NCBI GenBank assembly: GCA_039811945.1
Contig: JBDHZQ010000001.1
Location: 162 to 64,161 of the forward strand
Source of the DNA: Propionibacteriaceae bacterium
GTDB taxonomy: Bacteria; Actinomycetota; Actinomycetes; Propionibacteriales; Propionibacteriaceae
Length of the DNA: 64,000 nucleotides
Reading direction: 5' to 3'
Both the position numbers and the translations under genes were made by a program. This document shows, one piece after another, positions 54,387 through 61,630 of this stretch; the first letter of the stretch is position 1, and every line of letters starts with the position of its first letter. The notes under the pieces were generated by a model that saw nothing but the letters and a program-made list of their open reading frames with translations, did not search any database and had not been told where the DNA came from.

Positions 54387-54646
54387 TCGCAGGCGGCGCT
54401 CAAAGCCGATCAGGAGAGGCGGGACAGAGCTTCGGCACTCAATCGCAGGCACGAGCACATCGACTCTGCCGCCGAAAAGCGGGCCAAACGCCGACAAGCG
54501 GGCCAAGGCGAAGCACCGTGGTCACCGAGGCCATGGCGAGGGAGGTTGCCGTACGTGCGCTCAGTTCCGCTCGGTCGCCTGACTAGCGCCCAGGCAGCGA
54601 GCTAGCCTCGGCAGCACGTCGCTCGCCCGAAACTCGACAACTCGGT

Positions 54647-54922
54647 GTGATGTTCCATCACGACACATCAACCGGCCCTGAAAGCACCCTCGCCGCTCTG
54701 AGGCTGGCAACCGCGACATGGATCACCGACGTCGTCGAACACTGCGCCACCCTCGGTCTCGTGCGCAACGACCTGCCCGTCAAACTCGCAACCGAACTCG
54801 CACTTCAAGTCGTCACGACGATCGACCGATTTGCGGTTGACAATGCACTCCATTCCCCTGGCGGAATCGGCCAGCCGACGCTGGCCATCAGCCTCCTTCG
54901 GGGCCTCCTCGACCCCCCGTGA
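54647..54922 (+). pseudogene. Probable TetR-family regulator C-terminal fragment
   Basis: 91 aa of helical sequence (ATWITDVVEHCATLGLVRNDLPVKLATELALQVV) without the N-terminal HTH. Lies at the far edge of the ychF-proximal islet. Confidence 0.35.
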
Positions 54923-54991
54923 CGGGACATACAGCAATCCACAGAAGAATGTCGGAGGCAGCGGACGGGCCCATGCGGACGCCGGGTCGAA

Positions 54992-55387
54992 TCACCCCGA
55001 CGCGACAGGATCGACCGTGCCGAGACCGAGATGTTCAGCCACCGCTTTCATGGTGACGTCATGGGTCGCAACCGTGACTGATTCTCCGATCAGCAGCGCG
55101 GTCGCAAGATGCAAGGCGTCGAGCGTCCTGACATGCCTCTCGATGGACTCCGCAACCGCGTGCGTCTCTCGGGTGATGTCGAACATCCCGACGCGGCTGA
55201 GAAGCGCGTCCCCGTCCGACAACGGCCTTTGATCGCGTCGCAGCACGCGGATCACCTCGGTCCGCAGCAGCCTGGATGAAACAAAATCCGTGTCAGGCAG
55301 GTCCATCCAACCCTGCAGTCGCAGCCGTTCTGGCACATCGATGATCGTGCGAAGAGCCACCGAGGAGTCGAGATAAACAATGCCCAT
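54992..55387 (-). CDS. vapC: Type II toxin, PIN-domain VapC family
   Basis: 131 aa. MGIVYLDSSV (first acidic residue), a later ...ITRETH..., and ALHLATAL. Confidence 0.85.
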   Translation of the reverse strand: MGIVYLDSSVALRTIIDVPERLRLQGWMDLPDTDFVSSRLLRTEVIRVLRRDQRPLSDGDALLSRVGMFDITRETHAVAESIERHVRTLDALHLATALLIGESVTVATHDVTMKAVAEHLGLGTVDPVASG

Positions 55388-55390
55388 GGT

Positions 55391-55669
55391 TCAATGCTCG
55401 CCCTTCATCTGGTCCAGCAGCTCATCGACGTCTTCGGACCGGTAGCGAGGACCGCCGACCTCGCTGGGCCACGGCACCGGATGCGACGCCGGAGGCGTGT
55501 ATCGCCCCTGTCGTTGGGCTCGGGCAAGAGGGTCGTCCTGACCACGGTAGGAGCTCACCCGCCAGCGCGGCTCGCCCCGCTCCGTCACGATCACCTCGCC
55601 GGCCACCGCCGCCTGCGCGAGGACCTCCGTCGTGCGCTGGTTGAGATCGCGCTTCGTCACCGTCGCCAT
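55391..55669 (-). CDS. Type II antitoxin, Phd/YefM family
   Basis: 92 aa. MATVTKRDLNQRTTEVLAQAAVAGEVIVTERGEPRWRV. Lies 3 nt upstream of vapC. Confidence 0.85.
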   Translation of the reverse strand: MATVTKRDLNQRTTEVLAQAAVAGEVIVTERGEPRWRVSSYRGQDDPLARAQRQGRYTPPASHPVPWPSEVGGPRYRSEDVDELLDQMKGEH

Positions 55670-55711
55670 GGATGCAGTGTACTACTTGCGTCTGACATGG
55701 ACAGATCTCGT

Positions 55712-55736
55712 GCGGAGTGGAGCGGAACTCCACCAT
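55712..55736 (-). repeat. Degenerate copy of the ychF 3' end (stop lost)
   Basis: Plus strand gcggagtggagcggaactccaccat, versus the real end acgttgaagcgaaactcgaccac. The minus strand encodes MVEFRS.. Confidence 0.45.
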
Positions 55737-55856
55737 ATTCCGTAGCCGAACCGCATGACCGATGATCACGCTGCGACCTGCTGCGAACGCCCGGAGGGAC
55801 ATTGGAAGCCCACAGACACGGCGACTACCGCGCCAGCAGGCCGAGTGGGACGACGG
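55721..55856. repeat. ~115-135-bp dispersed repeat, copy 1 (copy 2 at 59743..59856)
   Basis: Shared blocks: agcggaactccacca ... cgcatgaccgatgatcacg ... cctgctgcgaacgcccggag ... gactac(c/g)gcgccagca(g/a)gccgagtgggacgacgg. Spans the 3' end of a DUF4143-ATPase reading frame, about 90 nt of spacer and a ychF-3'-like core. Confidence 0.8.
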
Positions 55857-55935
55857 CTTGGTCGTCGACGTCGATCAACGACTCCAGTTCCGGACCTTCG
55901 AGCAGATTGATTCCGACCTCCCGAGGCCGGATTGC
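55825..55935 (-). pseudogene. 3' fragment of a DUF4143/AAA ATPase paralogue
   Basis: Encodes ...AIRPREVGINLLEGPELESLIDVDDQAVVPLGLLAR*. Compare the intact gene's end, RPDGISVVALTSLGP*, and the second fragment's, RPDGVAVVPLGLLAP*. Confidence 0.55.
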
Positions 55936-55972
55936 GAAGGGCAACGTATGGAGCGACTGGAAGCGAACGCGG

Positions 55973-56066
55973 TTCACCGAAACCGAAAGAGAGACCTTGA
56001 TGGTGTTCGAGGCCACCAAGGACCCTACGAACTGAACCTGAACTCGACCACGTTCGGTGCGTGTGA
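55973..56066. repeat. ~92-bp direct repeat A flanking mazEF (contains a ychF-3'-like core at 56025-56060)
   Basis: ttcaccgaaaccgaaagagagaccttgatggtgttcgaggccaccaaggaccctacgaactgaacctgaactcgaccacgttcggtgcgtgtga. About 90% identical by eye to copy B. The minus strand of the core encodes VVEFRFSS*. Confidence 0.9.
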
Positions 56067-56103
56067 CTATTAGCCGTAGCACTCACAGCCGAGTGCCGGG
56101 CCT

Positions 56104-56442
56104 CTACAAGTCCAGCAGGATGGCCAGCGTCTCGCGTAGCTCACCGAGGATGACCGGGCCAACGTTGCCCGTCGTGGCAGCGATGCGTGTCACCGCCACC
56201 GACCTCACGTGCTGACACCGCGCCGACGACACGTCAGCGAGCCCGTTGGCTTGGTCGGGTTCGATCACGACCTCGGACCCACTGTCGCGGATCGCTCGCG
56301 TCAAGGGAACGACCTGGACGACGTTGGGGCCACCCCGAAGCACGCGGGCAGCAGTCACGACAACGGCTGGACGTTGCAGCCCAGCCTCACTCCCCGCAGG
56401 CGTCCCCAAGTCGAGTTCAACAACGTCACCCGGCGTCAGCAT
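56104..56442 (-). CDS. mazF: Type II toxin, MazF/PemK family endoribonuclease
   Basis: MLTPGDVVELDLGTPAGSEAGLQRPAVVV...VVPLT. The track start at 56460 is also possible. Confidence 0.88.
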   Translation of the reverse strand: MLTPGDVVELDLGTPAGSEAGLQRPAVVVTAARVLRGGPNVVQVVPLTRAIRDSGSEVVIEPDQANGLADVSSARCQHVRSVAVTRIAATTGNVGPVILGELRETLAILLDL

Positions 56443-56623
56443 CGAGCCATGTCGTCTCATCGTCGGTCAGCGGGACCGCAAGGTCCCGACCGATCGCGTC
56501 CTGCCGGAGCACCCGAAGCGCGCGGGCCACGGTTTCGTCGATCGTCTCGTGACGCTGGGCAGCCAGACGCGTGACCCTCGCGTGCGTCTCGCGGCTCACC
56601 CGGATCGTTGTTGTGTCGGCCAT
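56426..56623 (-). CDS. Type II antitoxin (RHH/MazE-like)
   Basis: 65 aa. TTIRVSRETHARVTRLAAQRHETIDETVARAL (ribbon-helix-helix pattern). Overlaps the mazF 5' end. Confidence 0.75.
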   Translation of the reverse strand: MADTTTIRVSRETHARVTRLAAQRHETIDETVARALRVLRQDAIGRDLAVPLTDDETTWLDADAG

Positions 56624-56738
56624 ACCCGGAGTCTACTCCAAGGTAGACGAATCAGTCTACCTAAAGTTCCGACCGCAGCCGGGACTCTGGTCGAAGATCC
56701 GATCACGTGTCATACAAGTGCGCGACCACGCGGCGCCG

Positions 56739-56830
56739 TTCACCGGAACCGACACGGAGACCTTGATGGTGTTCGAGGCCACCAAGGACCCTACGAACTG
56801 AACCTGAACTCGAACACGTTCCGTGTGTGA
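56739..56830. repeat. ~92-bp direct repeat B flanking mazEF (contains a ychF-3'-like core at 56791-56825)
   Basis: ttcaccggaaccgacacggagaccttgatggtgttcgaggccaccaaggaccctacgaactgaacctgaactcgaacacgttccgtgtgtga. Confidence 0.9.
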
Positions 56831-56908
56831 AGGTCAGGCTTGCGCTACGACGCGCTGTCGAACGCCAGGAAGTGCTATTCCGGCCCTGGACGCCATCGCG
56901 GCTGCACG

Positions 56909-58165
56909 CTACGGCCCCAGTGAGGTGAGCGCGACAACCGAGATGCCGTCGGGGCGGACATAGCTGGGACCGGTGGGGACGAGCACCGCGGCGATCGCTG
57001 GCGCACCCGTCGAATCGGCATCCACCACCTTCAGCAAACGCTTGAGATTCTCTGCGCCCTCATCGATCCGGCCGGACCCGAGCTTGATCTCCAGAGCCGC
57101 CCACCTGCCGTCGTCGCGCTGCACGATGGCATCAATCTCCAACCCGGCCTTGGCACGCAGGTGCCTCACCTCGGCACCCTGAAGCGCGGCATAAGCACGG
57201 AGTTGCTGAACCGCGAAGGATTCGAACAAGATGCCCAAAGTCTCTGGATCCTTGAGCAGGCGGTCGACCGAGCTGACCCGCAATGCGGCACACGCCAGCG
57301 ACGAGTCAACGAGGTGGCGCTTGGGAGACTGCCGCAACGGGGTCCGGGTCCTCAGGGTCGGACCCCATGCCTCTTGCACCTCCAACACGAAGATCCGCTG
57401 CAGTGCTTCAAGGTATCGAGCAACCGTGTCCGGGTGCAGTGGTCCTGCGGAACCGCCGGCGTCGGCAGCCAGCGTTCGCATGGATACTTCACTCGCTGAC
57501 GTCCGCGCGAGAGACCGCAGCAAGGCAGCCACCTTGACCGGGTCATGCTGCACATGACCCGCTGCCGCCACGTCCAAACGAGCGATCTGGTCGAGGTAGC
57601 CCCTCGCGTACCGGGCCGCCCCCATCGTCGGCAAGTCCAGGCTTGCAGGCCAACCACCCGCGATCAGCCGCTCCACAACGTCGGAGAACGAACCGAGGAC
57701 GTCCGAACTCCTTGGCGGGACGCCGTCGAGGAGCCCTCGCAGCGACACCTCGCCAGACGCGTGACCTGTCTCGGCCATCGTCAAGGGGTGCATCCGAAGC
57801 CACGAGAAGCGGCCGGTCCCCGTGTGGCGGGTAACGTCATCGCTGGGCGACGCGGATCCGGTCAGGACGAACTGACCTTTCGCCTGCCGACGGTCAACCT
57901 CGTGGCGTACCGCATTCCACAGGGCAGGCACCGTCTGCCACTCGTCAAGGAGTCTTGGCGCCTCACCGGCAAGCACCAGCTGGGGATCAGCCAACGCCAG
58001 TTGACGCAGCGCCAAGTCGGTGTCGAGATACGCCTGACTTCGGGTACACCGACTGGCAGTCTCGGTCTTCCCCACGGCCTTCGGGCCATCGATCACTACC
58101 GCCCCAGACCATGCCAGATGCTCAGTCAGCGCCCCCTCTAGCAAACGCTCCACATACTCCGACAC
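56909..58165 (-). CDS. ATP-binding protein, AAA (AAA_14) + DUF4143 family
   Basis: 418 aa. Walker A VIDGPKAVGKTE and Walker B-like APRLLDEWQ. The C-terminal part is typical of DUF4143 ATPases. Confidence 0.75.
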   Translation of the reverse strand: MSEYVERLLEGALTEHLAWSGAVVIDGPKAVGKTETASRCTRSQAYLDTDLALRQLALADPQLVLAGEAPRLLDEWQTVPALWNAVRHEVDRRQAKGQFVLTGSASPSDDVTRHTGTGRFSWLRMHPLTMAETGHASGEVSLRGLLDGVPPRSSDVLGSFSDVVERLIAGGWPASLDLPTMGAARYARGYLDQIARLDVAAAGHVQHDPVKVAALLRSLARTSASEVSMRTLAADAGGSAGPLHPDTVARYLEALQRIFVLEVQEAWGPTLRTRTPLRQSPKRHLVDSSLACAALRVSSVDRLLKDPETLGILFESFAVQQLRAYAALQGAEVRHLRAKAGLEIDAIVQRDDGRWAALEIKLGSGRIDEGAENLKRLLKVVDADSTGAPAIAAVLVPTGPSYVRPDGISVVALTSLGP

Positions 58166-58290
58166 GTGGACAGGCTAGCATCGATTAGGCGATTTGGCGG
58201 CCAATCATTAGGTGATTCGGAGGTCGCAGGTTAGGTGATTTGACCAATCGACCCTACGTTCCATGCGCCAGCTCAACTGACAGCGCGCCA

Positions 58291-58321
58291 CTACACGTTG
58301 AACCTCCACTCGACCGCGGTC
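58291..58321 (-). repeat. Degenerate copy of the ychF 3' end
   Basis: Plus strand ctacacgttgaacctccactcgaccgcggtc. The minus strand encodes ..AVEWRFNV*, versus the real YchF end VVEFRFNV*. Confidence 0.6.
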
Positions 58322-58359
58322 CGAGTGTTGTGGTTCCTCCCGAATCGCGGAGGGTTTCG

Positions 58360-59024
58360 TTATGCCGCGTCTCGGTTGAGGGCGGTGGTCTCGTAGGTGA
58401 TCGGTGACATCATCGCGGCTGCGGTGTGTCGGCGCTGGTGGTTGTAGAAGCCGTAGCACCAGTCCAGCACGACCGGCTGGGCTGTGGCGGGGTTGTCGAA
58501 GTCGCGTCGCGACAAGACTTCCCATTCCAGGCTGGAGAAGAACGCCTCGGCGGCGGCGTTGTCGAAGCAGGATCCGACCCTACCCATGGACTGCCGGATG
58601 CCGAGGGTGCGGCACAGACCGGTGAACGCGTGGGCGGTGTAGGTCGAGCCGCGGCCGGTGTGCGAAATTCTCAAAGGCCGTACGACTGTCGGCATGTGGT
58701 CGCCCTGCGCTCGCCGAGGAAGGCGGCAACAAGCCACTGGCATACCCCCCGCTTCCTGTAGCGCTTCCCGGTAGCAGTGACGAGCTCTTCCGAACGCCCC
58801 GGCCTGTTTCTTGGGGTCGCAATCGAAAGCTCCCTCACGGATGCAGAGTATCGATTCGGATCCGGAGCATCGAAGAAGAGTTGCCCGAGCGGGAGCCTGG
58901 TGTGGTGAATCCGGGCTGAAAGTGTCCGTACGAAGATCGGCGAGAAGCGAGAGAGATAACCCACCGCACGGACACACGCGACGTGATCCGTGATGACGTC
59001 GAAGCGATCACCCAGTGCCTCCAC
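58360..59024 (-). mobile_element. IS3-family transposase relic (C-terminal rve/DDE part; 5' part frameshifted or absent)
   Basis: 58360..~58695 encodes ISHTGRGSTYTAHAFTGLCRTLGIRQSMGRVGSCFDNAAAEAFFSSLEWEVLSRR...VVLDWCYGFYNHQRRH, a classic IS3 OrfB C-terminus. Upstream similarity survives only in another frame. No OrfA and no inverted repeats were seen. Confidence 0.75.
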
Positions 59025-59087
59025 GACGCTCGACTGGTCAGCACCCGGCCCGATCCAGCAGGATCCACACCCGACCTGGCCGCAGAG

Positions 59088-59351
59088 TCACACATAGGCG
59101 TCTCGCCGGTGGCGAATGGTGATCACGCGGACCACCACCCGCTCCTCATGGATCTCGTAGATCACGCGGAACTCGCCCCGCCTGGCAGACCAGCGGCCCG
59201 CCAACTCGTTGCGCAGCGGCTTGCCCACCCGGTGAGGCTGTTCGGCGAGTACATCCACGAGGAAGTTCAGACACGCCGCAGCAACAGCCTCGGGCAGAGT
59301 CTCCGTCAGCGCACGTCGGGCAGCGGGAGCCAGCTCGATTCGGTAGGTCAC
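59088..59351 (-). CDS. Type II toxin, RelE/ParE family
   Basis: 87 aa. MTYRIELAPAARRAL...GEFRVIYEIHEERVVVRVITIRHRRDAY. Confidence 0.88.
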   Translation of the reverse strand: MTYRIELAPAARRALTETLPEAVAAACLNFLVDVLAEQPHRVGKPLRNELAGRWSARRGEFRVIYEIHEERVVVRVITIRHRRDAYV

Positions 59352-59638
59352 TGAGCCAGTCGACCCAGCGCGCGCATCTCAGCCTGCACTTCATCAAGTG
59401 AGTAGACCTCGCCGCGCGCGCCAGCCCGCTCGGACTCTCGGATCTCGGCCATGGCCTCTGGATCACCCAAGATCTCAAGGGTCTCGATCAGCGAGTCATA
59501 GTCATCGACGCTCAGCAGCACCGCGGCCCGGCGCCCGTTCTTGGTGACCTCAATACGCTGGTGGGTCCGTTCGGCCTCCTCGACGAGACGCGAGAGTTGC
59601 GCACGAACTTCAGCCAGAGGCAGCGTAGTCATGTACAT
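59348..59638 (-). CDS. Type II antitoxin, Phd/YefM family
   Basis: 96 aa. LPLAEVRAQLSRLVEEAERTHQRIEVTKNGRRAAVLLSVDDYDSLIETLEIL. A 4-nt overlap couples it to the toxin gene. Confidence 0.88.
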   Translation of the reverse strand: MYMTTLPLAEVRAQLSRLVEEAERTHQRIEVTKNGRRAAVLLSVDDYDSLIETLEILGDPEAMAEIRESERAGARGEVYSLDEVQAEMRALGRLAQ

Positions 59639-59731
59639 AATTGTAGCGCGCCACTGCGATCAGCACACGGCTGCCTCGCTGCGGCAGCATGTAGTCACAC
59701 CTGTGGCGCATCCGGGTGACCATGACGTGGT

Positions 59732-59759
59732 TCACGAACTGAAGCGGAACTCCACCACG
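59732..59759 (-). repeat. Degenerate copy of the ychF 3' end
   Basis: Plus strand tcacgaactgaagcggaactccaccacg. The minus strand encodes VVEFRFSS*, the same variant as in repeats A and B. Confidence 0.6.
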
Positions 59760-59824
59760 AATCGCATGACCGATGATCACGGCTGTGGCCTGCTGCGAAC
59801 GCCCGGAGCCCGCTGACAGGGTGA

Positions 59825-60025
59825 CTACGGCGCCAGCAAGCCGAGTGGGACGACGGCGACGCCGTCCGGTCGGCGGTACGCGGTGGGGCCGGTGGTAATG
59901 ACGATGGCGTCGAGCAGGCGGTGCCCCAACTGCTCGCGGACCCAGAGTTGGGCCAGCACGTCCCGATAGGCAATCGAGGTCGATCGGGCGGGCTTCTCAG
60001 CTAGGCCAGGGGCCGAAGCATCCAA
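59825..60025 (-). pseudogene. 3' fragment of a DUF4143/AAA ATPase paralogue
   Basis: 66 codons ending ...ITTGPTAYRRPDGVAVVPLGLLAP*, which aligns with the C-terminus of the intact 418-aa gene. Confidence 0.55.
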
Positions 60026-60556
60026 GATCTAGCCATAGCTGGCGATGCTTGAGGTCGCGGCAGCGTCCAGATCGCAGCCTATGAATCAGTCAAATCGCAG
60101 GCATCGGATCAACTAGACCGCAGCACCCGCCCCAGGGCGACTGGGCCTTCTTCTCCGAACGGTACGGGCCGTTCCGCACCATACGAAGGCCAAGCTCGAG
60201 TACGGCTGATACCCCAGCCGGGCAGATCCTGCTGGCCCTCGGTTCCCTCTTGACGACCGGCACGACCGGCACGACCGGCCTCGTGGCCCCGCGGATCCTC
60301 GCGGTCCTGGTCTTTCCCTCAACTACCTCCTGCTACACCGGCAGTCTGGATTCGCCAGAGTCGAGGAGAAGCTCAACTCTGGGGGCCGACTTGAGGAGCC
60401 CGAGGTGACCGCCTACCTGCGTTGGAACCTACCTCCGCATGTCGTGCTGGGGCTGCTCTACATGGCCACTTACGTTTCCTGCGCGCTCCCCGTTTAGCCG
60501 TCGAACACGTCGCCTGTGCGCAGTCCGTCAACGGCCCAAGGTCACGAGGCGCCGAC

Positions 60557-61630
60557 TCACACGTTGAAGCGAAACTCGACCACGTCGCCGTCGGCCATGA
60601 CGTACTCCTTGCCCTCGATGCGAGCCTTGCCGGCGGAGCGTGCGGCAACGATCGAACCTGAGGCGACGAGGTCGTCGTACGACACAATCTCAGCCTTGAT
60701 GAAGCCCTTCTGGAAGTCGGTGTGGATGACCCCGGCGGCCTCGGGTGCGGTGGCGCCCTTCCTGATCGTCCAGGCGCGGGATTCCTTCGGCCCGGTCGTC
60801 AGGTAACTCTGCAGGCCGAGCGTCTCGTACCCCACCCTGGCCAGCACGTCGAGTCCAGGCTCGCTCACTCCGGCGTCGGCGAGAAACTCGACTGCCTCGT
60901 CCGGCTCCAAGTCGATGAGTTCTGCTTCGAACTTCGCGTCGAGGAACACGGCCTCCGCCGGTGCCACCAGAGTTCGCATCCGCTCTTTGAGGGTCTCGTC
61001 GGACAGCTCGTCGGCGTCGCAGTTGAACACGTAGAGGTACGGCTTGGCCGTGAGTAAGAACAGGTCACGCAAGGGTGCAGGGTCGAGTCCCGCCTGGAAT
61101 ACGCCCTTGCCGGAATCGAGCACCCGCTGGGCTTCGAGGTACGCCTCCAGCTTCGGGCGTGCCTCCTTCTTGATGCGGGCTTCCTTCTCGGCGCGAGGTA
61201 CGGCACGCTCCAGCGTCTGCAGGTCGGCCAGGATCAGCTCTGTCGCGACGGTCTCCAGGTCGTTCGCCGGGTTGACCCCGCCGTCGACGTGGGTCACGTC
61301 CGGATCGGTGAACACTCGCGTCACCTGACAGATCGCGTCGGCTTCCCGAATGTTCGCCAAGAAGGCGTTCCCCATCCCCTCACCCTGACTCGCGCCTTTG
61401 ACAATTCCGGCAATATCGACGAACGTCACGGTCGCCGGGATCGTCTTCTCCGACTTGCTGATCCGCGTCAACACCTCCAGCCGCGGGTCGGGGACACCCA
61501 CCACGCCGGTGTTGGGTTCGATCGTCGCGAATGGGTAGTTGGCCGCGAGAACGTCGTTCTTCGTCAGCGCATTGAACAGGGTGGACTTTCCCGCGTTGGG
61601 TAGTCCGACGATGCCGATAGTCAAAGCCAC
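60557..61630 (-). CDS. ychF: Redox-regulated ribosome-binding ATPase YchF
   Basis: VALTIGIVGLPNAGKSTLFNALT (GTG at 61630; the track start at 61696 is over-extended). TGS-like C-terminus ending GKEYVMADGDVVEFRFNV*. Confidence 0.95.
   Translation of the reverse strand: MALTIGIVGLPNAGKSTLFNALTKNDVLAANYPFATIEPNTGVVGVPDPRLEVLTRISKSEKTIPATVTFVDIAGIVKGASQGEGMGNAFLANIREADAICQVTRVFTDPDVTHVDGGVNPANDLETVATELILADLQTLERAVPRAEKEARIKKEARPKLEAYLEAQRVLDSGKGVFQAGLDPAPLRDLFLLTAKPYLYVFNCDADELSDETLKERMRTLVAPAEAVFLDAKFEAELIDLEPDEAVEFLADAGVSEPGLDVLARVGYETLGLQSYLTTGPKESRAWTIRKGATAPEAAGVIHTDFQKGFIKAEIVSYDDLVASGSIVAARSAGKARIEGKEYVMADGDVVEFRFNV

Follow-up and report, generated by a model that had tools for sequence, protein, structure and literature searches.

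Small recombinase-less cassettes in tandem at the 3' end of ychF: probable serial site-specific insertion in a Propionibacteriaceae genome

The islet downstream of ychF in this Propionibacteriaceae genome is probably a tandem series of small cassettes without recombinase genes, each added in turn when a site-specific recombinase, inferred to be encoded elsewhere, acted on the 3' end of ychF. Most of the cargo is made up of type II toxin-antitoxin pairs and of genes with a candidate role against phages, one of them a DUF4143 ATPase (PDC-S01). Serial insertion at this site had been proposed in a first-pass annotation of the window (the whole 64,000-nucleotide stretch that was analysed), and each element of the proposal that was tested is supported at the level of the cassette family. 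Recombinase-less cassette stacks at the ychF end occur in many actinobacteria and seem to have gone undescribed so far.

The product of ychF is 100% and 98% identical to two database YchF proteins and possesses MMR_HSR1 and YchF-GTPase_C domains (Pfam). The last 27 nucleotides of the gene recur four times (c1 to c4) with 21 to 23 matches, all on the ychF strand, and beyond these a fifth copy (c5) is degenerate and a sixth (c6) is truncated; the sites are read on the minus strand with the consensus GTSGTSGAGTTCCGSTTCAACGTSTRR, and their positions are given in plus-strand coordinates (Table 1). With at least 21 of 27 matches required, the entire window contains five sites in the orientation of ychF (the true gene end and c1 to c4) and none in the opposite one. 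At a control rate of 1.9e-6 per nucleotide, taken from 2.1 Mb of related loci, 0.011 matches are expected in 6 kb (Poisson P(>=4) = 6e-10), which bears out the earlier description of degraded ychF ends in a single orientation. An independent repeat search of the window also recovered this family. Copies c4 and c3 are contained in a longer repeat of 96 nt (55968-56063 and 56734-56829, respectively; 92% identity) and have 53 nt in common to the right of the core.

Table 1. Features of the ychF-proximal islet, from ychF outward
Feature	Position	Strand	Details
ychF, redox-regulated ATPase YchF	60557-61630	-	357 aa, GTG start
ychF terminus, putative live proximal recombination site	60557-60583	-	GTGGTCGAGTTTCGCTTCAACGTGTGA; VVEFRFNV*; reference for all copies
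Module A	59759-60556	-	Non-coding/relic DNA and frameshifted DUF4143 ATPase C-terminal fragment (59825-60100)
c1	59732-59758	-	23/27; VVEFRFSS*
Module B	58318-59731	-	Phd antitoxin 59348-59638; ParE/RelE toxin 59088-59351; IS3-type rve relic 58360-58977
c2	58291-58317	-	23/27; AVEWRFNV*; left flank cggacc
Module C	56818-58290	-	Intact AAA_14 + DUF4143 ATPase 56909-58165
c3	56791-56817 (core)	-	21/27; VFEFRFSS*; left flank cggaac; within repeat 56734-56829
Module D	56052-56733	-	MazE-like antitoxin 56426-56623; MazF toxin 56104-56460
c4	56025-56051 (core)	-	22/27; VVEFRFSS*; within repeat 55968-56063
Module E	55737-55967	-	DUF4143 cassette 3' remnant, paralogous to end of module A
c5	55710-55736	-	MVEFRS, stop lost; degenerate; pattern match with 2 mismatches
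Module F	54642-55709	-	Phd-like antitoxin 55391-55669; VapC PIN toxin 54992-55387
ORF inside module F	54647-54922	+	91 aa
c6	54615-54641	-	Truncated distal copy; weakest member

Most of the module contents named in the first-pass annotation were confirmed. In module B, matches to PhdYeFM (1.7e-20), ParE_toxin (1.6e-8) and rve_3 (2.3e-9) were found; in module D, to PemK_toxin (2.4e-14) and DUF7557 (4.7e-4); and in module F, to PIN (1.7e-10) and, under the gathering score, PhdYeFM (8.5e-4). The intact ATPase of module C matches DUF4143 (6e-31), AAA_14 (2.7e-11) and the PADLOC candidate defence family PDC-S01 (4e-68), and upstream of it are three TTAGGYGATTY repeats (58185-58241; 0.01 expected). 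The fragment in module A matches the C-terminus of the DUF4143 ATPase of locus L086 (66% over 44 aa, E 6e-16, blastx) and, in a second frame, the same protein again (E 4e-7); the small ORFs of this module have no Pfam match. Part of module E (55747-55866) repeats the end of module A (59758-59866) at 83-96% identity. The plus-strand ORF previously called a TetR fragment has no Pfam match even at E <= 1, and its identity could not be confirmed.

The association with ychF extends well beyond this genome. Among 80 actinomycete species, the compartment downstream of ychF, read on the same strand as the gene, contains 27 copies with at least 21 of 27 matches, and three control compartments together contain 4; with at least 20 of 27 matches, the numbers are 53 versus 13, 13 and 10. 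At least 120 metagenomic contigs matched a scan for the junction motif, and the 80 that were retrieved (354 kb) contain 146 copies. These share one orientation without exception and form arrays with as many as six members, spaced at a median of 1075 bp (67 intervals). Cassette sizes are concentrated at 0.45-2.6 kb. Although these loci were found by the junction motif alone, ychF itself is directly upstream in 32 of the 80.

Insertion is seen directly in a Cutibacterium-like contig (L138), which is 97.4% identical through ychF to Cutibacterium sp. V947 and has an extra 4.06 kb (two cassettes) exactly at the ychF terminus. The terminus and native flank of V947 reappear 4 kb downstream, now after a cassette-end motif, as anticipated if each insertion restores the gene end and pushes the old end outward. 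Mobility of individual modules likewise holds at the family level: VapBC and HigBA-like cassettes occupy different array positions in different genera, and these shared units are more similar (83.6% and 81.1%, respectively) than the accompanying ychF genes (75.3% and 74.9%). Cassettes are shared whole between genera, with their edges at the copies, and a HigA-like helix-turn-helix cassette with a similar left end was found also in Nocardia farcinica.

The junctions have a conserved cassette-end motif, AGATGTT.TTC.GT.ACGGAAC, which is not ychF sequence and is present also in junctions outside those selected by the search pattern. Likeness to ychF is only 0.04-0.14 at positions -6, -4 and -3 and at least 0.9 from position +6; the motif gives way to ychF homology between positions -1 and +3 of the 27-mer, and the homology itself is limited to approximately 24-27 nt, its left boundary being fixed across over 100 junctions. 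Within the window, the full motif is found only to the left of c5 (GCGGTTCGGCTACGGAAT, 55737-55754), where the flank is typical of the family (PWM score 17.9, top 2e-5 of window positions) and where 28 nt of the copy match the junction of L086 at 86% identity. The inner motif is present at c3 (CGGAAC, top 0.8% of positions by PWM) and as variants at c4 (CCGAAC) and c2 (CGGACC). A PWM scan of the window found no cassette-end motif at c1 or c6; by eye, the left flank of c1 reads as a paralogue of that of c5 with an 11-nt deletion, and that of c6 resembles that of c4. The single-strand folding of junctions is no better than that of shuffled sequence. In another array (L055), a pair of copies (15445/17411) has 98 nt of flank in common, and a 63-aa (about 190-nt) fragment of ychF is present. 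The L055 fragment implies that some events used longer homology or were not site-specific, and neither the 98-nt flank nor the 53 nt shared by c3 and c4 is predicted by a simple crossover confined to the core.

According to the proposed mechanism, each incoming cassette, inferred to be circular, would bring a site of approximately 50 bp in which the cassette-end motif (approximately 24 nt) precedes a copy of approximately the final 24-27 nt of ychF. Crossover at or just to the right of the boundary between them would keep ychF whole, its last codons now being those supplied by the cassette, and would displace the previous terminus outward with the cassette-end motif now in front of it. Arrays could build up because the ychF end stays competent, and the newest cassette would be the nearest to ychF. 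Because the cassette would supply the last codons, the tail is expected to vary, and live ychF genes do carry alternative tails (FNV*, FSS*, RHS* and TGLTSGGKK*). Six other species have FSS* at the end of their live ychF gene, and the native ends of L009 and L010 resemble c1 (96% identity over 28 nt) and c4 (91% over 33 nt), respectively, all of which supports the suggestion that the FSS* copies are foreign. Only GTTGTCGAGTTTCG is left of c6, with 13 of 14 matches to the ychF terminus; the similarity stops after GAGTTYCG, which is also where ychF ends with alternative tails depart.

No integrase or serine recombinase was found in cis in the window, as had been stated earlier, or in the 354 kb of metagenomic arrays, and a motif search for serine recombinases detected none in or near arrays. 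Pfam summaries, which cover only the 25 commonest families, and the ten largest proteins include no recombinase, but a lone odd small one could escape such inspection. The recombinase is therefore presumed to act in trans; neither the enzyme nor its class has been identified.

The array in the window is old and decaying: its copies have degenerated, two of its DUF4143 cassettes survive only in truncated form, it includes an insertion sequence relic, and the same array is found in its only close relative, collinear at 98.75% identity. The module-level polymorphism sought among related strains is thus absent from its own lineage, and neither a circular intermediate nor an empty site was seen in its own species, so that mobility is demonstrated for the family and not for this instance.

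Decay of this kind is also the basis of an explanation that is unlikely but not negligible, in which the modules are leftovers of larger self-integrating elements at ychF (AICE-like with a tyrosine integrase, prophage or pipolin) that lost all but addictive toxin-antitoxin or defence genes and were never mobile as small units. Five integrating elements with tyrosine integrases, three of them AICE-like, use the same ychF end, which also counts in favour of site-specific insertion of the cassettes, as does its use by pipolins; integrase 3' relics adjoin ychF in six loci, and one relic is distal to the L086 cassette. However, neither an integrase nor its relic is held by any of 71 cassettes from 92 sources, the DNA newly inserted in L138 is already without one, and the gaps of 43-126 nt between copy and next gene are too short to accommodate one in the window, where the ychF-proximal flank (module A) contains no detectable relic (p 0.07-0.6). 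The clustering of sizes, the sharing of entire cassettes bounded by copies, and the conserved end motif also argue against decay, as does the boundary of homology, which in the integrase-bearing class starts instead at GTTCCGC.

It is considerably less probable that local duplication, gene conversion, or Campbell-type or homology-facilitated recombination, with no dedicated site-specific recombinase, built the arrays on ychF as an anchor. The gene is conserved highly enough to serve as one, and the ychF fragment of L055 and the long repeats of L055 and of c3 and c4 are in keeping with such events, but the homology is short and has a fixed left boundary, a conserved motif foreign to ychF is directly to the left of the junctions, the tails resemble foreign ychF ends and not the resident one, and every metagenomic copy is co-oriented. 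Two further readings can be considered refuted, namely that the similarity is due to chance in GC-rich DNA and that the motif is a generic repeat, dispersed and without connection to ychF. Single copies are short, and c5 and c6 are weak on their own, but the strand bias and low expectation place the similarity above chance, the motif is essentially absent outside the compartment downstream of ychF, and 32 of the 80 metagenomic loci directly adjoin ychF.

Site-specific accretion of cassettes thus remains the preferred reading, and several known systems resemble parts of it. Cis-mobilizable elements (CIMEs) and the site-specific accretion of ICEs and IMEs, for example ICESt1 and ICESt3 at the 3' end of fda, involve att-flanked units without integrase and transfer genes that line up behind a housekeeping gene, at its 3' end, and are presumed to be mobilised in trans; for CIMEs, an integrase-bearing partner with the same att site is known. 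In contrast, the integrase-bearing elements found at ychF differ from the cassettes in element arm and homology boundary, and the ychF arrays are longer and their units cassette-sized. The composite SCC and pseudo-SCC islands of staphylococci result from repeated insertion at the 3' end of rlmH (orfX), with tandem elements of 3-60 kb, some without ccr, separated by direct repeats of the gene end; the locus itself contains Ccr serine recombinases, whereas none was found in or near ychF arrays. The first-pass annotation had called the array integron-like, which is acceptable only as an analogy. Co-oriented cassettes of 0.5-2.6 kb with one or two genes each, a conserved recombination motif at the cassette end with AAC...GTT dyad symmetry, one fixed proximal insertion site and frequent toxin-antitoxin cassettes are features in common, but the defining features of integrons are lacking: no IntI adjoins the ychF array, the junction is approximately 50 bp of cassette motif and gene-end replica and not an attC of 57-141 nt, its folding does not surpass that of shuffled sequence, and 29% of genes point the other way.

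Several types of element share ychF as a target in Actinomycetota, and also in Firmicutes. Apart from the AICE-like elements, pipolins with large serine recombinases target it in Actinomycetota (PMC11551731), and a phage contig abuts the ychF stop; a paper on a pneumococcal prophage reportedly involves ychF as well. These other elements are autonomous, 7 kb or more in length, with their own recombinase, whereas the islet and its relatives are non-autonomous stacks of cassettes of approximately 1 kb. The ssrA islands of Dehalococcoides are found in tandem downstream of a single-copy essential gene, each bounded by a 20 bp direct repeat of the gene's 3' end with a conserved 15-bp element-derived motif directly upstream; sixteen carry a CcrB-like serine integrase beside attL, and fifteen have no integration module and were interpreted as cis-mobilizable elements or products of accretion (PMC3146451). 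The ychF arrays share their tandem units, gene-end repeats, upstream element motif and integrase-less units, but the ssrA units are multi-gene genomic islands, whereas the ychF units have a median size of approximately 1 kb and include a recombinase in none of 71 cases, and their target is a protein-coding gene with its last codons replaced. By analogy, the ychF arrays may be viewed as combining the tandem site-specific accretion of cis-mobilizable elements, SCC and ssrA islands with a compactness like that of integrons.

The 3' end of ychF recurs in degraded form downstream of the gene in the window, always in the orientation of ychF, as the first-pass annotation had described. With a degenerate consensus built from actinomycete ychF ends (GTSGTSGAGTTCCGSTTCAACGTSTRR) and a cut-off of at least 21 matches in 27 nt, five sites were found on the ychF strand, four of them downstream of the gene, and none on the opposite strand; a repeat search returned a direct-repeat family (D2) of five members, the ychF terminus and four downstream sites. 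Two more distal copies (c5 and c6) are weaker. In 2.1 Mb of related loci used as control, sites occurred at 1.9e-6 per nt, from which 0.011 would be expected per 6 kb (Poisson P ~6e-10), and the four downstream similarities thus exceed chance.

Features of the ychF islet and of comparison loci (contigs and genomes designated L).
Feature	Locus	Coordinates	Strand	Remarks
ychF	window	60557-61630	-	GTG start; 3' end GTGGTCGAGTTTCGCTTCAACGTGTGA, encoding VVEFRFNV*
Copy c1	window	59732-59758	-	at least 21/27
Copy c2	window	58291-58317	-	at least 21/27
Copy c3	window	56791-56817	-	at least 21/27
Copy c4	window	56025-56051	-	at least 21/27
Copy c5	window	55710-55736		core degenerate; family-typical flank, PWM top 2e-5
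Copy c6	window	54615-54641		only GTTGTCGAGTTTCG retained
Longer repeat pair	window	55968-56063, 56734-56829		96 nt, 92%
Longer repeat pair	window	55747-55866, 59758-59866		
TTAGGYGATTY repeats	window	58185-58241		+ strand coordinates
IS3-family relic	window	58360-58977		module B
AAA_14 + DUF4143 ATPase	window	56909-58165		
AAA_14 + DUF4143 ATPase, fragment	window	59825-60100		
AAA_14 + DUF4143 ATPase	L086	12085-13335		
AAA_14 + DUF4143 ATPase	L138			two
AAA_14 + DUF4143 ATPase	L162			
AAA_14 + DUF4143 ATPase	L058			
MazE/AbrB-type antitoxin + PIN cassette	L064, L041	array positions 1 and 2		cassette 83.6%, ychF 75.3%
HigBA-like cassette	L007, L020	array positions 1 and 3		cassette 81.1%, ychF 74.9%
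YchF C-terminus fragment	L055	17246-17437		in frame, 63 aa, VIHTDFGKGFIKAEV...VVEFRFNV*
Copies with shared right flank	L055	15445, 17411		98 nt
AadA-like nucleotidyltransferase cassette	L212	9582-10400		
Integrase and GTTCCGCTTCAACGTCTGA repeat	L210	9550-10755; 10849-10875		IMG/VR element
Phage contig abutting ychF stop codon	L211	1-10166		IMG/VR, 51% GC

Toxin-antitoxin and DUF4143 modules had been assigned between the copies, and Pfam domains bear them out: Phd + ParE, an rve relic, an AAA_14 + DUF4143 ATPase, MazE-like + MazF, and Phd-like + PIN. Module A retains, with a frameshift, a C-terminal part of a DUF4143 ATPase of the type found in locus L086. A TetR fragment listed with them received no confirmation from Pfam. 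The type II toxin-antitoxin criterion of an adjacent pair with family domains is supported for Phd + ParE and for MazE-like + MazF; in the Phd-like + PIN pair, the Phd-like match falls under the Pfam gathering score. The IS3-family transposase relic is in ychF orientation, retains the C-terminal part only (rve_3, rve, rve_2) and lacks an intact partner ORF. Three direct repeats of TTAGGYGATTY with an exact spacing of 23 nt (0.01 expected) closely precede the start of the intact DUF4143 ATPase and probably form an operator or other protein-binding array for that cassette. The two FSS* copies of the 96-nt repeat pair remain alike for 53 nt beyond the stop codon on the right, a stretch with an inverted repeat (CCTTGGTGG...CCATCAAGG), so that the MazEF cassette and the DUF4143 remnant begin alike. 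A promoter scan of the islet, with a consensus unsuited to actinobacteria, found nothing, and tblastx of the islet against all loci without a low-complexity filter gave only GC-driven noise and was discarded, the parallel blastn being retained.

The possibility that the core is a generic repeat unrelated to ychF was excluded by its distribution. Among 80 species loci with 10-kb flanks around ychF, 27 copies with at least 21/27 matches lie downstream on the ychF strand versus 4 in three control compartments together, and at 20/27 or better the counts are 53 versus 13, 13 and 10. Arrays were found in Parenemella (L055, four copies), Cutibacterium sp. V947 (L020, three copies) and a Nocardioides MAG (L041), and single small cassettes in Micropruina, Enemella, Kitasatospora and others. 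Five copies follow ychF in a 2.66-Mb PLSDB record of Nocardia farcinica (L212). This record (NZ_LN868939.1, 'Nocardia farcinica NCTC11134 plasmid 2'; L212 is 1759173-1783219 of it), which contains ychF and has two annotated features only, looks like part of a chromosome deposited under the name of a plasmid; an AadA-like nucleotidyltransferase cassette is part of its array. A metagenome scan with CGGAAYNNSGTGGAGTTCCGSTTCAA matched at least 120 contigs, of which 80 (354 kb) were fetched. All 146 copies in these 80 of the at least 120 contigs are on the seed strand; ychF lies immediately upstream in 32/80 (61-82% amino acid identity to that of the window), the largest array has six copies (L153), and the 67 inter-copy intervals have a median of 1075 bp, mostly 0.45-2.6 kb.

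That repeated insertion restores the ychF end and displaces the old one, as had been proposed for the window, is supported by a pair of close relatives. In ychF and the DNA upstream of it, the Cutibacterium-like metagenomic contig L138 matches Cutibacterium sp. V947 (L020) with 97.4% identity; it then carries 4.06 kb absent from L020, and collinearity resumes (92.8%) exactly at the ychF terminus of L020. The displaced terminus in L138 (GAGTTTAGATT.CAA.GTCTGA) has the unusual codons and native flank of L020 and is preceded by AGATGGTTCTGCGTGCCGGAAC, whereas the live ychF end of L138 uses other synonymous codons (GAGTTCCGGTTTAACGTGTAG). The insert consists of two cassettes with a DUF4143 ATPase in each. 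Cassettes are also common to different genera at differing array positions, with identity above that of ychF. The evidence for mobility is comparative only, consisting of this gain and of cassette sharing.

The junctions have a defined structure. The sequence to the left of each copy does not match ychF and instead forms a conserved motif, AGATGTT.TTC.GT.ACGGAAC (106 junctions in 80 of the at least 120 metagenomic contigs); the junction motif is also written CGGAAY-NN-SGTGGAGTTCCGSTTCAA. In 51 junctions that were not selected by the search pattern, agreement with ychF is 0.04-0.14 at positions -6, -4 and -3, 0.57-0.71 at +1 and +2, and at least 0.9 from +6 onward, a profile in which element sequence gives way to gene sequence at a fixed place, about -1 to +3. 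Each junction thus comprises ~24 nt of cassette motif and a 27-nt replica of ychF. Within it, CGGAAC and GTTCCG form an inverted repeat around an 8-nt spacer. There is also an outer dyad (ACGTT / AACGT), whose cassette-side arm is 5 nt more distant than its gene-side arm. The spacing of attP versus attB half-sites of large serine recombinases resembles this asymmetric outer dyad. Such half-site geometry, with the boundary near the dyad centre, hints at an unusual serine recombinase and may serve as a lead only. Folding of the junctions as single-stranded DNA was no better than that of shuffled sequences (z -0.02 to -2.1), so they are not attC-like hairpins.

The last codons of live ychF genes vary in a corresponding manner. 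Alternative tails (FNV*, FSS*, RHS*, TGLTSGGKK* and FQHASGGKAAGK*) diverge directly after GAGTTCCG and are followed by unrelated DNA, as expected if incoming DNA supplies the last codons. The FSS* copies of the window, which had been suspected to have arrived with foreign DNA, match live FSS* ends of other Propionibacteriaceae with 96% and 91% identity, which favours that origin. Non-canonical live tails occur in eight loci (L012, L022, L054, L055, L073, L083, L086 and L212) as TGLTSGGKK*, HGPTSGRNK*, FQATSGQQK*, FQHASGGKAAGK* or RHS*; those of the form ..TSG.KK are homologous between genera despite unrelated DNA past the stop codon.

The window's own array shows signs of being old and eroding: the copies are degenerate, two DUF4143 cassettes are truncated, an IS3-type relic is present, and the flank of c1 has an 11-nt deletion relative to c5 (read by eye). 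The best species-level match of its YchF is 82% (Propionibacteriaceae bacterium Y1685), and exact-protein look-ups of this YchF and of the 100% identical database protein P0001 gave no record. The module-level polymorphism sought in related strains is not seen in the nearest relative (L081, GCA_009612815.1; YchF 98% identical), in which the whole islet has the same layout and is collinear at 98.75%; the array is therefore older than the split of the two, and no polymorphism is visible at that distance. Relatives with ~86% YchF identity differ: some have a contig break right after ychF, others an insertion sequence, and in others the old VEFRFNV* end lies beyond a single DUF4143 cassette. The metagenomic contigs L082, L083 and L085 in this group stop 0.2-1.3 kb past the ychF stop codon, which fits strain heterogeneity or repeats at the site that break assemblies, and in L083 and L084 an insertion sequence (DDE_Tnp_1) sits at the ychF stop region.

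The 71 distinct cassettes, drawn from 92 sources, mostly encode one or two proteins (median 126 amino acids), with 96/136 genes oriented with ychF and 40/136 opposite. Their Pfam domains are of toxin and antitoxin types (ParE, PIN, FitA-like and CopG RHH, Phd, HTH_3, Fic) and others (AAA_14 + DUF4143, PD-(D/E)XK nucleases, AadA-like nucleotidyltransferase, methyltransferases, hydrolases). AAA_14 + DUF4143 ATPases are the most recurrent large cargo, which may mean either that they are defence genes under selection or that they have a part in mobility; DUF4143 was reportedly included in a survey of the PD-(D/E)XK nuclease superfamily, and a search for a solved structure gave no informative match. 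Defence activity is only predicted, from PADLOC matches to PDC-S01 (4.2e-68 for the DUF4143 ATPase of the window, 3.1e-74 for the L086 protein); further matches are to PtuA / PDC-M01A, PDC-S26 and PDC-S56.

No recombinase had been noticed in the islet or beyond ychF within the window, and none emerged from tblastn and profile searches of the window for an integrase. Tyrosine recombinases were absent from the window and loci L001-L087 except for unrelated AICE-type integrases; a profile of ychF-abutting integrases matched nothing in the 354 kb of metagenomic arrays (80 of the at least 120 contigs); and the serine-recombinase catalytic motif, sought in all ORFs of at least 80 amino acids, was found in one small resolvase only (L075). 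The ten largest cassette proteins have no Resolvase or Recombinase domains, and no recombinase recurs beyond the distal end of the arrays. What precedes ychF is not constant either, with a helicase gene in the window and DUF4442 in other loci. A peptide likeness beside the window's ychF (CAQSVNGP...ADS versus ADSVRTG...ADS) was rejected as an integrase 3' relic (p 0.07-0.6 in alignment to ten relic flanks). As for a phage-borne or plasmid-borne attP, a junction-motif scan of IMG/VR gave two matches without the rest of the ychF terminus, read as chance, and PLSDB returned chromosomal-type records only, including that of N. farcinica.

Autonomous elements also use the ychF end. In L079 (a ~7-kb element with a 19-nt attR) and L080, the stop codon directly adjoins tyrosine integrases of the actinomycete integrative-element type; tyrosine integrases lie downstream of ychF in L019, L058, L075 and the IMG/VR element L210, and integrase 3' relics follow ychF at eight other loci. 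Since their similarity to ychF starts at GTTCCGC and their arm differs from that of the cassette junctions, with only a loose GATGR...CGRAAC resemblance read by eye, these elements constitute a second class of user of the ychF end. The integrase of L210, an element of ~9 kb, is at the distal end beside a GTTCCGCTTCAACGTCTGA repeat, and its tyrosine type is predicted from N-terminal sequence only; L211, another user of the site, is a phage contig that adjoins the ychF stop codon. A paper on pneumococcal prophage excision is said to involve ychF. In Actinomycetota, ychF is also an integration site of pipolins that encode large serine recombinases (PMC11551731).

The best reading of these data is that non-autonomous cassettes accreted in tandem at the ychF terminus by site-specific recombination, through a recombinase inferred to act in trans; the earlier remark that the islet encodes no recombinase agrees with the failure of the searches to find one. 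An integrase of the L079 type is a candidate for that role in sharing the same ychF terminus, but its att arm and homology boundary are unlike those of the cassette junctions. Derivation of the cassettes by erosion of larger integrase-bearing elements is disfavoured, as the cassettes contain no integrase relics at all, are tightly distributed in size and have an end motif specific to them, and the fresh insertion in L138 is already integrase-less. Homology-driven events probably contribute: the Parenemella array (L055), whose live ychF tail is TGLTSGGKK*, includes a 63-amino-acid fragment of the YchF C terminus, so that the part of the gene displaced in one event or more was ~190 nt and not 27 nt, and flanks of 96-98 nt are duplicated. 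Crossover within the core alone leaves the shared right flanks (53 nt in the window, 98 nt in L055) unexplained, but homology in turn does not account for the fixed boundary and the non-ychF motif.

Building on accretion with a recombinase in trans, it is possible, though on balance doubtful, that Actinomycetes have a dedicated, integron-like platform for cassette capture, anchored at the ychF stop codon and regenerable without disruption of ychF. A recombinase encoded elsewhere would recognise a site of ~50 bp, made up of the 24-nt cassette-end motif and the 27-nt ychF terminus, in a reaction that would regenerate substrate-type sites on both products; toxin-antitoxin and anti-phage cassettes of ~1 kb could then be inserted, excised and reshuffled indefinitely while ychF stays intact. 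Less probably, the DUF4143 ATPase-nuclease cassettes that recur in the arrays would themselves contribute to mobility, suggested by their place in the newest, ychF-proximal cassettes of L138 and L086 and, as a fragment, in the proximal one of the window. 

The arrays would account for metagenomic contigs that break right after ychF, and the compact site should lead to a new site-specific recombinase. The ychF end also offers a predictable location in which to look for toxin-antitoxin and anti-phage systems of Actinomycetes, among them Nocardia, Cutibacterium and possibly mycobacteria, where vapBC32 adjoins ychF. The window's own biology is modest: an old, part-eroded stack of toxin-antitoxin modules and a single candidate defence ATPase that is still intact.

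The literature searched held no account of cassette arrays at ychF; novel aspects are the use of ychF as target, units no larger than cassettes, the wide occurrence among Actinomycetes and the total lack of a linked recombinase. The concept of accretion is known from CIMEs and from SCC at rlmH. It is also known from the ssrA islands of Dehalococcoides, which, like the ychF junctions, combine a repeat of the target 3' end with a conserved element motif upstream (PMC3146451). Some SCC and ssrA islands encode a large serine recombinase (Ccr/Dsi-like), not found in the ychF arrays, and AICE-like elements at ychF have an integrase or relic next to the terminus or copy, not found in the window. Cis-mobilizable elements resemble the ychF arrays as tandem units flanked by att repeats at one site and lacking recombination or transfer genes; a cognate autonomous element with the same att site, and with an integrase able to act in trans, is known for them, and the integrase elements found at ychF share the terminus, with a different arm. 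Integrons differ in that IntI adjoins the array and in attC sites that are folded palindromes of 57-141 nt, unlike the shorter, indistinctly folding ychF junctions. Integron cassettes are mostly promoterless and co-oriented under a common promoter; at ychF, most cassette genes share the orientation of ychF and the others are opposite. To our knowledge, integrons are rare or absent in the phylum Actinomycetota. Should the ychF cassettes indeed be mobile as units, integrons would have a phylogenetically separate counterpart in the ychF terminus, a second way to stockpile and exchange small adaptive genes at one safe chromosomal address.
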